Shown: in pieces, positions 6,535 to 37,326 of the stretch
Numbering within the stretch: the stretch's first letter is position 1
Layout of the letters: each line of letters begins with the position of its first letter
IMG/VR virus record: IMGVR_UViG_3300024996_000135
Location: 1-38,741 of that record
DNA length: 38,741 bases
Source of the DNA: a virus
Lineage: Duplodnaviria > Caudoviricetes
Direction: 5' to 3' (one strand)
Position numbers and translations under genes: made by a program
The notes under the pieces: model-generated
The model's input: only the letters and a program-made list of their open reading frames with translations
Databases searched by the model: none
What the model was told of the DNA's origin: nothing

Positions 6535-8028
6535 ATGCCTCGTAAAAATTCATACATAACCTTCACAGATCAGTTTTGCGGTGCCGGTGGCAGCTCTCAG
6601 GGTGTACGCTCTTTATCAAAGAAAAAAGGAGGTGGAATAGAAGTTAAAATGGCTTTAAACCACTGGAAATTGGCCATTGAAACACACGAAACTAATTTTC
6701 CCGAAACGCTCCACGATTGCACAGATATATCAGCATGCGATCCACGCCGCTATCCTTCCACTGATGTGATGGTAACCTCCCCTGAATGCACTACTCATAC
6801 CCCAGCCGGAGGGAACCATCATAAAGCTTTGAAAGCACAAATGGATTTGTTTGCATCAGGTAAAATTGATCCCGCCACAGAGCGAAGCAGAGCAACCATG
6901 TGGGATGTATGCCGCTTTGCAGAGTATCATAAATACAATGCCATCATAGTTGAAAATGTGGTGGAAGCAAAAACCCGGTGGCCGCTATTCGATAACTGGC
7001 TCACCTGCATGCATACATTGGGCTATAACCATAAATGTGTTTACTTGAATAGTATGCATTGCCACCCAACGCCACAAAGCAGGGATCGGATGTATGTGGT
7101 GTTTTGGAAAAAAGGGAATAAAGCGCCTGATCTTGATTTTAAACCCACTGCTTATTGTGGCAAATGTTGCAAAGATGTACAGAGCGTTCAAACATGGAAA
7201 AACCCATACAAACAGTATGGCAAGTATCGTTCTCAATATGTTTATTCATGCCCTTCATGCACCACCGCAGTAGAGCCTTATTATTATGCTGCAATGAATA
7301 TCATTGATTGGAGTGATAGAGGCCAAAGGATTGGGGATAGAAAAAAGCCGCTTGCTTCAAAATCAGTAGATCGCATTGAACGTGGGTTGAAAATGTTTGG
7401 CGATGTTCCTTTACAGTTTCATGCTGCATACAGTGATCAGGCAAGAGGCGTGGTAAGGCCACTTACTTCTTATGGTTTTGCACAAACTACTTTCTCATCA
7501 CAGGCAATTGCATTGCCGCCAGTTCCATACATAATCAAGATGGAAAACCTCAGCAATGGTGATAATAATATAAGGTCGGCTGCTGATGTTATGCAGGCGC
7601 AAACATGCACTCATAGTAGTGGCATTGTTTTCCTTACAGAATATACAAGCAAGGGCAAAGCGAGGGCTATAACAAATGTGTTAAATACTGCCACATCAAG
7701 AGAAAAAATGGGCATCCTTACTGATGGTGCTTTAAATGCGTTTTTATCTTATTACAATGGTGGCACAGATCAGGCCAGCCATTTATTAGCATCAACCGGC
7801 ACACAGCCAACCGGGCAAAGGCTCAGCCTGGTATCATATACACAGCCTAAAATTGAAGACTGTTATTACCGCATGCTGAAAGATGAAGAAGTAAAGCTCT
7901 CAATGGCTTTTGATAAAGACTATATCATATTAGGCACTTCCAAAAACAAGGTAAAACAATGCGGCAATGCTGTAACACCACCAGCAATGGAGTGGATAGC
8001 CGGGCAAGTAATTGAATCATTCAACTAA
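6535..8028 (+). CDS. DNA (cytosine-5) methyltransferase
   Basis: Motif I DQFCGAGG, catalytic SPECT, ENV, QSRDRMY and motif X KQCGNAV; CxxC...CxxC insert. Confidence 0.92.
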   Translation: MPRKNSYITFTDQFCGAGGSSQGVRSLSKKKGGGIEVKMALNHWKLAIETHETNFPETLHDCTDISACDPRRYPSTDVMVTSPECTTHTPAGGNHHKALKAQMDLFASGKIDPATERSRATMWDVCRFAEYHKYNAIIVENVVEAKTRWPLFDNWLTCMHTLGYNHKCVYLNSMHCHPTPQSRDRMYVVFWKKGNKAPDLDFKPTAYCGKCCKDVQSVQTWKNPYKQYGKYRSQYVYSCPSCTTAVEPYYYAAMNIIDWSDRGQRIGDRKKPLASKSVDRIERGLKMFGDVPLQFHAAYSDQARGVVRPLTSYGFAQTTFSSQAIALPPVPYIIKMENLSNGDNNIRSAADVMQAQTCTHSSGIVFLTEYTSKGKARAITNVLNTATSREKMGILTDGALNAFLSYYNGGTDQASHLLASTGTQPTGQRLSLVSYTQPKIEDCYYRMLKDEEVKLSMAFDKDYIILGTSKNKVKQCGNAVTPPAMEWIAGQVIESFN

Positions 8029-11721: not shown

Positions 11722-12279
11722 TTAATTAAATATTGATTTTAAGGCCCTCAAAGTTTCCCTTTCCACAGCTTTATTTAGTACCGGGCTATCAGCGCCGCTT
11801 ACCGGCATAAACTGGCGGCGAGGTATATTTACTTTACGGGTAAATGCATTCACTTTCGTAGTGCTTAAAAGCACAGTAACGCTTTTCATTCGCTCTTTAC
11901 CTTTATTGGTAAACTTCCCTGATGCTACCCGCTTTTTGCCCAACAATCGCCTCGTATGCGCTCGTACGCTTACTGTTCCCTTATAACCATTGTTGTGTAC
12001 TTTGGCATAAGGGCTATCATTGTATAATTGCACCAGCGCCAAGCCCATAATTCTAAAGCCGGTGCGGCGGCGTAGCGATCCACTTTTTACAAGTATAGTA
12101 CCTTTCCGGCTGTTGGCCTTCCACTTTTGAAAACTAGAGCCCTGCCAGCCTTGCGCTCTGAAATTTCCATTAACAAAACGTACGGCCATTTGCCCTACAT
12201 TCTTTGGCCATTGGTAATGCATGTACTGCTTCAGCTCATTGGTTTTTTTGATCAGTCCATCACTTATTAAATTTTTCAT
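11722..12279 (-). CDS. phage virion morphogenesis protein (Mu gpG-like)
   Basis: NFRAQGW, ILVKSGSLRR, YAKVHNNG and IPRRQFM motifs. Confidence 0.85.
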   Translation of the reverse strand: MKNLISDGLIKKTNELKQYMHYQWPKNVGQMAVRFVNGNFRAQGWQGSSFQKWKANSRKGTILVKSGSLRRRTGFRIMGLALVQLYNDSPYAKVHNNGYKGTVSVRAHTRRLLGKKRVASGKFTNKGKERMKSVTVLLSTTKVNAFTRKVNIPRRQFMPVSGADSPVLNKAVERETLRALKSIFN

Positions 12280-12287
12280 TATATTTG
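12280..12287 (+). promoter_or_regulatory. putative -7 promoter element antisense to the head operon
   Basis: TATATTTG(CA); no clear -33 element seen. Confidence 0.5.
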
Positions 12288-12293
12288 CACTGT

Positions 12294-12355
12294 AGATAAC
12301 CGGTAGTTATGGCGTCCCCTTCCAAGGGTCGGACCATATCGCCGGTTATCTTTTT
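12294..12355 (+). ncRNA. candidate small RNA with a tRNA-Gly(UCC) anticodon stem-loop mimic
   Basis: Basal stem 12294-12303/12342-12351, middle stem TATGG/CCATA, apical CGtCCC-CTTCCAA-GGGtCG, then a T run. Confidence 0.55.
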
Positions 12356-13614
12356 ATATAAATAAGTTGCCCAGACCTTAGTGTTCTCGCCTGTTTATCT
12401 GTTGTAATTTTATGAATTGTCCAGCCTAACAAATCCTTATCTACCCGAACCACAATAGCTGCAGCATCAAAATATTTTATAAACTCGGTCTCTAATTTTT
12501 TCCCTTTATTATTAAGCCTTTGCCATACTTCATCAGGGTTATTTAAAATATCATTGAAAGAGGCCCCAAACTCCCATCTTTTATCATCCGGTTTATCTTC
12601 TATAGCATGCCTGAAAGATTCTCGGCGTAGTTTAACTGTGATGCCCGTAGGTGTTTTAATCAATGCTTCTTTTTTATATACTTCATCAAACCACTCAATA
12701 GCATCGGCTGCATTTTCAAAGCTGTGAGGGGCAGGCCACACACTATCTGCCAGTATTTTTTCAACCGCAGGCAGGTTGTAGTTTTTTATAGCATCCAATG
12801 CTGATAGTGAATCGGGGTAGCTATTATCGCCTGTTGTAATACCTTTCAGGTTATTCAGATAAGTATTCTTTTCCAGGTCAAACAATTGTTTATTCCTGCC
12901 CATGTTCTTTTGAAAATAAGGTGATATTTTATATTCCTTTTGAAAATCAGCTTTAGGATCAACCGTTATCTTGCTTGCATTACCGGCAATGCCCGGCACT
13001 ACACTGCATCGGCAGTTCCAGCCATTGGGCGGGTAAATGGTATTCCAAATCTTATCGGTGGTTTTAGCTGTAAACTTATCCAGGCGGGCATGCTCCGGCC
13101 TTACATGGCCATCGCCTACGGTAGAGTATTCTAAGTACTCTACACCGTTGCTGCTAAATTCATCCCATTTACGGGCCATTTCTGCACTGCTTTTTGCTGT
13201 GTTGTACTCCGTTTGCAGCCAGCTATGGTTTATTTCATGCCCGGCATCCATTACGGAATTTCTAAAGTCAGTAAAGCTTCGCAAGCTACCATCCTGCTTT
13301 GTCATCATTTTAGTAAAAAGTTGCATTTCATACAAGCTTTTGGCTGCAGAAAATGCATGTATGTTCTGCTGCAGGTAAGCGCTTAATTCGTTGCGGCTAT
13401 CCTCAAAACTAAAAGAAGTGCCATCCAGTCCATGCCACATGGCGTCCGTCAGCTTTTTAGCATTGTAGTGGTAAATATCAATGGGTATCTGCCCTTCTTT
13501 TATTTTGGCATCATATAAATCCTTAGCCACGGTTTCCATCAAGGCGTCCAGCTCGGCAATGCGTTTTTTATCAGCATTCAATTTATGCCCGCAGCAATTA
13601 TCCTGGTATTGCAA
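12346..13614 (-). CDS. MuF (gp30/SPP1 gp7-like) minor head protein with a C-terminal PBECR2-like nuclease domain
   Basis: MuF motifs WLQTEYNTA, YSTVGDGHVRPEH and PPNGWNCRC. C-terminal FRHAI...ILNNPDEVW...FIKYF...RSGQLIY. Confidence 0.82.
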   Translation of the reverse strand: MQYQDNCCGHKLNADKKRIAELDALMETVAKDLYDAKIKEGQIPIDIYHYNAKKLTDAMWHGLDGTSFSFEDSRNELSAYLQQNIHAFSAAKSLYEMQLFTKMMTKQDGSLRSFTDFRNSVMDAGHEINHSWLQTEYNTAKSSAEMARKWDEFSSNGVEYLEYSTVGDGHVRPEHARLDKFTAKTTDKIWNTIYPPNGWNCRCSVVPGIAGNASKITVDPKADFQKEYKISPYFQKNMGRNKQLFDLEKNTYLNNLKGITTGDNSYPDSLSALDAIKNYNLPAVEKILADSVWPAPHSFENAADAIEWFDEVYKKEALIKTPTGITVKLRRESFRHAIEDKPDDKRWEFGASFNDILNNPDEVWQRLNNKGKKLETEFIKYFDAAAIVVRVDKDLLGWTIHKITTDKQARTLRSGQLIYIKR

Positions 13615-13637
13615 CCTAAGCCTCCAATGCCCTGCAA

Positions 13638-14927
13638 TTACAGGGCTTCGCCAAAAAAATCGTTCAACACTTTTTTAACTTCATCTTCAACGCTTAATTT
13701 TTTACCGGGCTTAACGATTGGTGGCTTCTGAGCTTCAGCTTCTTTCTTTGCTTCAATTTCCTGTTTCTGCAAATCATAATCTGCCGGTTTAGCAATGCCG
13801 CTGATGTTATAAAAATGCTCATCATCTACAGGTATACCTGCATTCTTTAATTTAATGGCCATATCAATCAGTTTATTGGCCAGCTCCGGCTCCACCGGAT
13901 CATCGTATGTAAACTTTCCTTCAGCAGGCAATAAGCCAAGCCTAATTAATACAGGCTTTACTTTTTCGTTCAGGATGCTGAGCTCATCTTCCTGATCATC
14001 TTCAGCCACTTCATTCACCGTTTTGTAATGCGTTTCACTTTGCGCATACCCACTGCTTTTGCTGCTGGTAGTGGTTTCAGTAGCCCCTAGTATGTGTACA
14101 GCAAGCTCTTCATTCATAGCCGTACGCAAGCGATCATATAGATCAGAGCTTCCGCTGGTGCCTTTCATTTCATGGAAGGTTAATTCTGCCTCTTTGGGTA
14201 ATACAGCATAAGCGGCGCTACCTGCTTTATCCAATGCATTTTCCAATTGCAATCGAACCTGCTCATTAAACCCATCGTAGCGGGCTTCTCTAAAGGGCAT
14301 GCCAAATATTTGTGCGTAGTTAGCCCAATCCGCAATATTCCCACGTTTATAAATAACGTAGGCGCAAGCTTCCAATAGATAACCGAGATCGTTCCATTCC
14401 CCAATTTCAACCACATAATTGCTAAATGGCGGGTTACGGTAGGCAATACCATCTACGCCATATTGCTCATACACAATAAGGCCTTCATCTGGCTTAATAT
14501 GTTTTTTGGGTACATCAAAAATCTTAAGCCCATCAGCGTTCATTATTTCAATGCACCCGATGCCCCATGCTTTGCAAAGCTGTATTTTTTTTCGAAGCTT
14601 CCGAAACTCCGCAAGGTTTATAAAATCGTTTACAGCATCTATTTCTTTGCCTGATTTATCGCAAAATCTCAATTTCTTTTTTGTAACAGCCAACACACGT
14701 TTGGCCACCAGGCGTTTCAGAAACCCATCTTTAAGTACATCATCGTACATATCCATTAAAAGCACTCGGCTTCCATTAATACTTTCGGCTTGTATATGTG
14801 CATTGCGCCACTTGTCAATATCCAGCATGCTACGCTGTACCGGCCTGATGTTGATGTTCATGATCTGCAACCCCTGTTCGGTGATGCTACCGTTTTTTTT
14901 AATAACTCCTGGTTTCACTTTTGCCAT
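13638..14927 (-). CDS. portal protein (Mu gp29/DUF935-like)
   Basis: WANYAQIFGMPFREARY and ILGATETT...SGYAQSETH motifs; 429 aa. Confidence 0.88.
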   Translation of the reverse strand: MAKVKPGVIKKNGSITEQGLQIMNINIRPVQRSMLDIDKWRNAHIQAESINGSRVLLMDMYDDVLKDGFLKRLVAKRVLAVTKKKLRFCDKSGKEIDAVNDFINLAEFRKLRKKIQLCKAWGIGCIEIMNADGLKIFDVPKKHIKPDEGLIVYEQYGVDGIAYRNPPFSNYVVEIGEWNDLGYLLEACAYVIYKRGNIADWANYAQIFGMPFREARYDGFNEQVRLQLENALDKAGSAAYAVLPKEAELTFHEMKGTSGSSDLYDRLRTAMNEELAVHILGATETTTSSKSSGYAQSETHYKTVNEVAEDDQEDELSILNEKVKPVLIRLGLLPAEGKFTYDDPVEPELANKLIDMAIKLKNAGIPVDDEHFYNISGIAKPADYDLQKQEIEAKKEAEAQKPPIVKPGKKLSVEDEVKKVLNDFFGEAL

Positions 14928-36495: not shown

Positions 36496-37326
36496 ATGAA
36501 AAAAAAGTACAATCAAGCTCCATTGCCATTTATGGGGCAAAAAAGAAAGTTTTTAAACAAGTTTAAAGAGTATTTAATGACCTGCCCTACTGATGCAACT
36601 TATGTTGATCTATTCGGCGGATCAGGTTTGCTGAGTCGTGCAGTTAAGGACACGCATCCGAAAGCCAGAGTTATCTATAACGATTTTGATAATTACAAGC
36701 AGCGAATTGAGGCTATTCCAGCCACTAATCAGCTGTTGATGGATATTCGTTCAATGATAGGAGAAATGCCAAAAGACAAGCGCCTGGATCAAGCGCTTAA
36801 GAATGAAATACTAGATCGTATAAGTAAAGAAACCGGCTTTGTTGATTATATAACCATTAGCAGCAGCCTGCTATTTTCAATGAATTATGCCACTTGCTTC
36901 GAGGATATGGCCAAATCGTCATTTTACAATTGTGTGCGATTGAGCGATTACGATGCCAGTGGGTATCTTGATGGCCTTGAAGTGGTTCGGATGAGTTACC
37001 GGGAGCTGTTTAAGAAATTCGAGAAAAAGCAGAATGTTTTGTTTATTGTTGATCCACCTTACCTGAGTACGGAAGTAGGCACGTATACAGGCTATTGGAA
37101 GCTAGCGGATTACCTTGATGTACTTACTACTTTGAACAGTAAACAGTACTTTTATTTCACTAGTAACAAATCGCATATTTTAGAGCTTTGCGAATGGATG
37201 GGAACTTATACGGATTATAGCAATCCCTTTAAAAATGCAGTAATTTCGACCACAAAGAATACGATGAATTACAATAGCACATATACTGATATAATGGTGT
37301 TTAAAGGCTATACAACTACCGTTTAA
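36496..37326 (+). CDS. D12-class N6-adenine DNA methyltransferase (at the Mu mom position)
   Basis: PLPFMGQKR, DLFGGSG, YNDFD and DPPY motifs. Confidence 0.92.
   Translation: MKKKYNQAPLPFMGQKRKFLNKFKEYLMTCPTDATYVDLFGGSGLLSRAVKDTHPKARVIYNDFDNYKQRIEAIPATNQLLMDIRSMIGEMPKDKRLDQALKNEILDRISKETGFVDYITISSSLLFSMNYATCFEDMAKSSFYNCVRLSDYDASGYLDGLEVVRMSYRELFKKFEKKQNVLFIVDPPYLSTEVGTYTGYWKLADYLDVLTTLNSKQYFYFTSNKSHILELCEWMGTYTDYSNPFKNAVISTTKNTMNYNSTYTDIMVFKGYTTTV

Follow-up and report, generated by a model that had tools for sequence, protein, structure and literature searches.

MuF polymorphic toxins of temperate phages join a MuF domain to a variable C-terminal toxin encoded in the head-packaging module, and one of the toxin domains so used, PBECR2, features a His/Thr pair (Jamet et al. 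2017, PMC5576092; Iyer et al. 2017, PMC5512222). Typically, a small immunity open reading frame (ORF) lies downstream of the toxin, the only immunity arrangement described in the available parts of PMC5576092. Here, we analyze a locus of this kind from the IMG/VR virus record IMGVR_UViG_3300024996_000135 (Duplodnaviria; Caudoviricetes), whose positions 1 to 38,741 form the 38,741-nucleotide stretch that was studied as a whole and is henceforth called the window. Its gene content and its named relatives, nearly all from Bacteroidota, identify it as a Mu-like prophage of a Bacteroidota host. Unlike typical MuF toxin loci, the window has no small immunity ORF directly downstream of its MuF gene: a 66-bp gap (12280–12345) is followed by the gene for a 185-aa gpG-like protein. 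On the strand opposite to MuF, this gap carries a promoter-like element, a predicted hairpin RNA and a T run. Judged by its gene content, the cassette represents a MuF polymorphic toxin that lacks the customary immunity ORF, and a putative antitoxin role for the predicted antisense RNA is well supported by comparison with homologous loci; an RNA of this kind goes unmentioned in the available parts of PMC5576092 and PMC5512222.

An RNase neutralized by a directly bound small RNA, as proposed here, is the hallmark of the type III toxin–antitoxin systems (ToxIN, AbiQ, CptIN and TenpIN) and of AbiF/RCd22; in the available part of the source, the type III antitoxin is a repeat array upstream of the toxin and co-transcribed with it (bioRxiv 10.1101/2025.04.15.648962). 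In contrast, the window has a single hairpin, downstream of the toxin and on the opposite strand, with its own predicted promoter, and the gene upstream is that of the portal. Further, type III toxins are of the ToxN, AbiQ, CptN, TenpN or AbiF type, whereas the nuclease of the window is fused to a virion protein and shows no such homology in Pfam; moreover, the antisense RNA is predicted to be tRNA-shaped and is paired with at least three toxin families. Among type I systems, those with a convergent 3′ overlap, such as txpA/RatA and bsrG/SR4, have small, usually hydrophobic membrane peptides as toxins and an RNA that acts by pairing. The present locus shares with them a predicted convergent antisense RNA that is complementary to the toxin mRNA and overlaps its stop codon and the gap, but its toxin is a 422-aa MuF–nuclease fusion of the late operon and the unpaired letters of its RNA loop are conserved. 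Finally, the colicin D and CdiA tRNases are the best structural matches of the MuF C-terminus, which at a modest Z of 5.4 may have their BECR fold, but the immunity factors described for them in the available parts of PMC9086364 and bioRxiv 10.64898/2026.08.28.747851 are all proteins. In a literature search that covered main texts, mostly from outside the subscription journals, we found no earlier description of antisense RNA immunity for MuF nucleases; relevant material could lie in the supplements to the domain surveys of 2017 and 2026.

A predicted antisense hairpin conserved with the predicted catalytic histidine

An initial annotation, made from the letters of the window alone, had placed an antisense −7 element, a hairpin of about 58 nt over the MuF stop codon and a T run in the 66-bp gap, and had read the next gene as structural and gpG-like with no immunity ORF after MuF; coordinates, folding, the ORF map and a match to PF05069 bear out both (Table 1). 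The hairpin, whose basal stem pairs 12294–12303 with 12342–12351, has a stability z-score of −4.6, and none of 200 shuffled sequences was as stable. Within it, a register with a 7-nt apical loop (−27.4 kcal/mol) ties with one featuring a 4-nt loop (−27.5 kcal/mol), the former accounting for 646 of 2000 sampled structures. The element TATATTTG follows the −7 consensus of Bacteroidota promoters (PMC7366714, available part); no TTTG was found upstream of it at the usual −33 spacing, the nearest lying 29 nt upstream. On its + strand, the window contains TAnnTTTG at just six sites, or 0.014 per 90 nt, and the position of the motif in the slot is therefore more than chance. The possibility that the hairpin is a tRNA gene or its remnant was rejected: it forms no cloverleaf with D and T arms and an acceptor stem, ARAGORN detected 0 tRNA genes in the window, and Rfam gave nothing credible and no tRNA match in this region, and nothing credible in 20 homologous loci.

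Domain searches recovered 271 homologous loci, of which 262 had enough downstream DNA and 111 remained at 80% identity. In most PBECR2 loci, a spacer of 45–230 nt extends from the stop codon to an antisense TAnnTTTG just ahead of the next start codon and folds into a closed stem. The set used for counting comprised 117 PBECR2 domains, namely 108 of 118 representatives (10 partial or frameshifted rows were dropped) and 9 from the MuF-first search described below; the list of loci lacking the gap was hand-picked. This set showed an association between the gap and the predicted catalytic His: both are present in 99 domains and neither in 11, while His without the gap is seen once and the gap without His in 6. 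The 11 domains devoid of both belong to three separate lineages, one of which is nested beside sisters that keep the His, the Thr and the RNA (L022, L023). The strict motif is found in 94 of the 99 His-plus-gap loci versus only 4 of 62 positions after the stop codon of the next gene, and at least 3 of the 5 misses feature a one-letter variant together with a hairpin. On the comparative evidence, the cassette is real, conserved and tied to the predicted nuclease activity.

The single locus with His and no gap (L175) has a 138-aa ORF overlapping the stop codon (L175:2300–2750), and the RNA of its sister L043 has a comparable ORF behind it, suggestive of a possible switch between RNA and protein immunity.

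The gap behind MuF as a proposed immunity slot

Searching by MuF domain makes no selection for toxin type and yielded 239 loci, 230 of them usable and 162 left after dereplication. Toxin classes were assigned from Pfam and extended by our own profiles, with the zincin-like members resting on weak matches or resemblance and L316 placed by hand among the short MuFs. An antisense TAnnTTTG was found 40–130 nt past the stop codon in 92 of 100 nuclease-type MuFs (PBECR2 13/18, LPD3 24/24, CdiA_C 55/58), and all five PBECR2 misses lack the His. The same interval contains the motif in 7 of 8 unclassified MuFs, 2 of 42 short MuFs and 1 of 12 MuFs with protein-targeting toxins. Among the short MuFs, the next gene begins within 30 nt in 35 of 41. 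Among the protein-targeting ones, the motif lies within the scanned range in 8 of 12, mostly 175–233 nt out, and in 6 of those 8 it is followed by an antisense ORF of 51–85 aa, which begins 4–6 nt after the motif in four cases; three others have a small sense ORF directly downstream. Because the motif is followed by an ORF or a hairpin depending on the class, the promoter position appears to serve a protein gene where the toxin is an ART, deamidase or peptidase, and a short hairpin in the case of nucleases. Judged by these contents, the gap behind MuF is a putative immunity slot.

A few loci of this survey deserve mention in their own right. Hankyphage p00 (BK010646.1; L511:2697–2960) codes for a MuF with a papain-fold deamidase domain, followed by an antisense TAnnTTTG and a 77-aa ORF that is a candidate protein immunity gene; MuF goes unmentioned in the available part of PMC12135933, a study with stranded RNA-seq. 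In the MuF at L316:2501–4048, which ends like a short MuF, a long extension has a weak match to LAGLIDADG_3 and may be an intein or homing insertion. Two CdiA_C-like MuFs (L318, L319) have gaps of 410–440 nt with no strict motif in the first 300 nt; these may hold longer RNAs or small antisense genes.

RNA shape and toxin class

In the predicted folds, the shape of the RNA tracks the class of the toxin: it is anticodon-arm-like with LPD3 and the PBECR2 clade of the window (the near clade), and a stem followed by CCA with CdiA_C. Among the 28 near-clade RNAs, the 20 with a clear apex (the other 8 were omitted) have a stem of 4–5 bp built from many pair types. Their loops, which range from 5 to 8 nt and are 7 nt long in 12, begin with C in 16, have U second in 15 and end with A in 15. 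A 2-nt 3′ bulge comes next, often GG, AG or UG; in host tRNAs, these letters are among those most frequently found behind the anticodon stem. In a loop test on 23 of 27 near-clade tree rows plus L276 and L289 (n = 25), loops starting with CU on at least 4 pairs were seen in 16, against 8.0 ± 2.2 in shuffled sequences (reached in 0 of 200) and 8 on the opposite strand. The near-clade sequences are too diverged for a whole-RNA MAFFT alignment with RNAalifold to have yielded a consensus; a 5-bp apex count gave 83.6% paired versus 47.4% shuffled, with segments anchored on folded stems and hence not independent.

The LPD3 RNAs feature 7-nt YU-NNN-R loops in 7 of 24 versus 2.4 shuffled (0/200), with middles that are mostly GUA or GCA; one of them (L461) has the 5-bp stem of the host tRNA-Tyr arm and another (L280) the exact Arg(UCU) loop. 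Anticodon arms resembling those of tRNA-Tyr, tRNA-Cys or tRNA-Arg were observed in L461, L475, L429, L508, L356, L336 and L280. The LPD3 model has its best matches among CdiA and RelE-type toxins, with a Z of at most 5.1 that is suggestive only, and LPD3 is likely a tRNase. Among the CdiA_C RNAs, CCA comes right after the stem in 19 of 55, versus 0 of 24 for LPD3 and 3 of 76 for PBECR2 (3/100 for the other classes together), and the minihelices display compensatory changes in 9 of 11 consensus pairs across 11 aligned loci. Minihelices ending in NCCA ahead of a separate terminator hairpin are found in L377, L393, L398, L400, L401, L402, L278 and L490. The CdiA_C profile matches PDB 4g6v, its closest solved relative, a toxin that cuts the acceptor stem of tRNA-Ala (PMC9086364, available part); the CCA-ended RNAs match the substrate region of that enzyme. 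Since the patterns are post hoc and the loci are kin, the shuffle counts overstate certainty, and the contrast between the classes is the stronger point in these comparisons. In part, then, the antisense RNAs appear to be tRNA mimics.

Distant PBECR2 clades have RNAs of other shapes, either about 90 nt long with a conserved GCUCACUG...GGAA...AGC core or 190–230 nt long with two domains (L021, L027, L030, L048, L090, L093, L200, L212; L041, L085, L114, L167, L179, L512). Rfam gave no matches among those scanned.

A predicted tRNase domain and its substrate

Apart from Phage_Mu_F (PF04233; aa 132–205, above the Pfam cut-off) and PBECR2, Pfam detected nothing in the MuF protein at E up to 0.01. 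The initial annotation had a PBECR2-type extension of about 150 aa at its end; the domain is there with its predicted catalytic His and Thr, but the nuclease domain itself spans about 110 aa. PBECRs have a His within their N-terminal helix along with a C-terminal Thr/Ser (PMC5512222, available part). His336 and Thr399 match this pair and, with the profile match, define the domain as PBECR2. Its AlphaFold2 model (35 sequences; pLDDT 94.6) has its best structural matches in CdiA BWH57 of Serratia and colicin D (Z 5.4; rmsd 2.6 over 77 aligned residues for colicin D), and the top nine, all with Z <8, are colicin D, CdiA and toxin–antitoxin entries; Foldseek against the PDB returned no match at E 0.001. 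The PBECRs have been placed in a colicin-like group, and the characterized members of this group mostly cut tRNA (bioRxiv 10.64898/2026.08.28.747851, available part). In general, colicin D cleaves anticodon loops. The C-terminus of MuF is predicted to be a tRNA-cutting nuclease, which is likely packed into the phage head.

The loop of the window, CUUCCAA, equals the anticodon loop of tRNA-Gly(UCC), as first proposed, and we found it to be that of the host's own tRNA. The further step from loop to substrate is not supported: an exact host anticodon loop closed by at least 3 pairs is seen in 1 of 73 PBECR2 RNAs, the window itself, versus 1.2 in shuffles, such that literal anticodon matching across the family was rejected as being at chance level, and the nearest sisters have CUAAAA, CUAAA and CUCAAA loops. 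Among the twelve 7-nt near-clade loops, the middle is A in 11, with the window as the exception, and within a CU-NNN-AA frame 16 of 64 middles match some host tRNA. In best local matches of the apex to host tRNA arms, both tRNA-Gly ranked first (22.0 vs. 16.5); this ranking was rejected as evidence for Gly, with 258 of 1000 random CU-NNN-AA hairpins scoring as high. As the window protein sits on a long branch in the tree, a shift to Gly is possible, but we regard tRNA-Gly as a doubtful candidate for the substrate of this enzyme.

Proposed mechanism and alternative explanations

We consider it fairly probable, from the comparisons above, that the virion nuclease is held off by an antisense tRNA-mimic RNA that binds it as a substrate-shaped decoy. 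In the lysogen, an antisense RNA about 60 nt long would be made by means of the primary sigma factor of the host, regardless of the late operon, and the closed basal stem would stabilize it. With its apex in the active site of the nuclease, the RNA would shield the cell while the late genes are expressed and when virions arrive that bear the same toxin, and tRNA cleavage would befall a cell without it. The anticodon-mimic antisense RNA antitoxin put forward in the initial annotation is favored by the slot, the co-loss with His and the arm-like apex in the clade; that its loop predicts tRNA-Gly is not supported. A broader scheme, to which we give slightly less than an even chance, is that Bacteroidota Mu-like phages share a polymorphic toxin system in which tRNA-fragment decoy RNAs are swapped with the nuclease: mimics of the anticodon arm go with the BECR-fold PBECR2 and LPD3, and minihelices ending in CCA with CdiA_C. 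In that case, the RNA would reveal for each uncharacterized toxin the tRNA that is attacked and the region of it that is hit, with tRNA-Gly as the target here.

Several observations weigh against the decoy. Literal anticodon matching is at chance level, as noted above; YU-NNN-R loops are not significantly enriched in the near clade (4/25 vs. 2.7); and the 51 distant PBECR2 RNAs, which have other conserved motifs, are not enriched in anticodon arms. Anticodon-like loops in homologous hairpins, proposed as a check initially, are seen in the near clade and LPD3 and not in these. The shape patterns were picked after viewing the data, with 8 patterns applied to 5 sets and several not significant; the loci are related and their counts overstate independence; and 6 His-less domains retain the gap, 5 of them with the motif. 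On the enzyme side, the best structural matches reach a modest Z of 5.4, the targets of PBECRs may be mRNA or crRNA in place of tRNA (PMC5512222, available part), and some colicin-like toxins cut the acceptor stem and not the anticodon (PMC9086364, available part). Finally, RNA-seq sought for one homologue (L105, not the window) came as contigs only and without strand, and gives no strand-resolved transcript; in one sample the short contigs gathered at the slot, and one of them stopped at 2443, close to the predicted start, but those of wastewater runs were scattered, all among holders selected with this region.

Alternatively, the RNA could be a type I-like cis-antisense regulator, pairing with the toxin cistron at its 3′ end or colliding by convergent transcription with leaky late transcription, so that the toxin mRNA is cut or silenced. 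The convergent RNA over the MuF stop codon, where a basal stem or terminator hairpin also lies in the homologues inspected, is in line with this, and the co-loss with His fits equally well. Yet, pairing needs no conserved loop, while the loop ends of the near clade are conserved; moreover, the RNA shape changes with toxin class, protein genes fill the same slot for protein-targeting toxins, and mRNA silencing could not protect late because the MuF protein must be made then to enter the head. We therefore see such a regulator as unlikely. An RNA antitoxin that binds the nuclease without mimicry, its CU...A loop being a plain protein-binding hairpin and the tRNA-Gly match due to chance, would account for the variable loop length, for middles such as AAA and AAU that match no host anticodon, and for the multi-stem distant PBECR2 RNAs without an arm. 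The recurrence of tRNA-Tyr/Cys-like arms in LPD3 RNAs (the L461 stem, the Arg loop of L280) and the CCA ends of CdiA_C RNAs, which match the substrate region of 4g6v, argue otherwise and render it quite unlikely.

That the hairpin has its role solely in the late mRNA of the sense strand, as a processing site, partial terminator or self-cleaved feedback target, with the promoter-like word a by-product of the A-rich leader preceding the next gene, is improbable: it does fold on the sense strand too (−26.3 vs. −27.5 kcal/mol antisense), the motif abuts the gpG start codon and the −33 element is missing at the usual spacing, but the T run lies on the antisense side, the antisense fold is more stable in 143 of 162 RNAs, the motif is rare after the stop codon of the next gene, and it precedes antisense ORFs in the protein-targeting class. 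Lastly, a short peptide antitoxin encoded by the 18-codon ORF that starts at ATG 12309 of the window is extremely improbable, as 17 near-clade RNAs share no ORF position or length and 6 of the 17 have no ATG.

Features and neighborhood of the locus

Table 1. Coordinates of the MuF–PBECR2 cassette in the window.
Feature	Position	Strand	Basis or remark
TATATTTG, −7 promoter element of Bacteroidota type, immediately next to the gpG start codon	12280–12287	+	Sequence; consensus in PMC7366714 (available part)
Predicted small RNA, closed 58-nt hairpin with basal stem over the MuF stop codon	12294–12351	+	Folding
Anticodon-arm-like apex: short stem, one U-U mismatch, loop CUUCCAA (12319–12325), 2-nt 3′ bulge	12313–12333	+	Folding, homologue comparison
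T run, putative intrinsic terminator for the antisense RNA	12351–12355	+	Five T; T runs 3′ of the stem in homologues too
Gene of the minor head protein MuF, with a predicted nuclease extension at its C-terminus	12346–13614	−	422 aa from TTG
MuF stop codon	12346–12348	−	Sequence
PBECR2 domain, predicted colicin-D-like BECR fold	12358–12690 (aa 309–419)	−	Pfam PF18810, E 1.8e-15
His336, predicted catalytic residue, N-terminal helix	12607–12609	−	Conserved in 100/117 homologues
Thr399, predicted second active-site residue	12418–12420	−	Nearly invariant in alignment A1; replaced in gap-less lineages
gpG-like virion morphogenesis gene, next in the late operon	11722–12279	−	PF05069 (Phage_tail_S/gpG-like), E 1.3e-5

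The MuF gene sits between the Portal_Mu and gpG-like genes in the head-packaging module, and the window further codes for transposase-like, AAA and repressor proteins. A PBECR2 domain is rarely carried by the sampled relatives; for P0003, at 71% the closest protein relative, a search for the DNA was unsuccessful. At the 3′ end of the portal gene, on the − strand, there is an in-frame U_UUU_UUU heptamer (13653–13659) with a hairpin (13629–13646) starting 6 nt later. By our reading of the sequence, a −1 slip at this heptamer would lead into the frame of MuF, open at this point, so that the toxin is joined to the portal. Among the homologous ORFs, many have a length of 730–900 aa, and those annotated in GenBank are portal–MuF–PBECR2 fusions. 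The prophage additionally possesses a C5 cytosine methylase and a D12-class adenine methylase (6535–8028 and 36496–37326).

Implications

Polymorphic toxins have been taken to need protein immunity, and protein-binding RNA antitoxins are known from few families. The system is directly testable because cultured carriers exist, namely Mucilaginibacter, Flavobacterium, Phocaeicola and Porphyromonas phages. If the proposal is true, these RNAs would add a widespread class, in which a substrate mimic of about 60 nt serves at least three nuclease families of two folds. They would be very small, specific tRNase inhibitors and would provide testable substrate predictions for PBECR2 and LPD3, neither of which has a described activity in the available parts of the sources. 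Such RNAs would also account for the seemingly missing immunity genes behind these MuF toxins.
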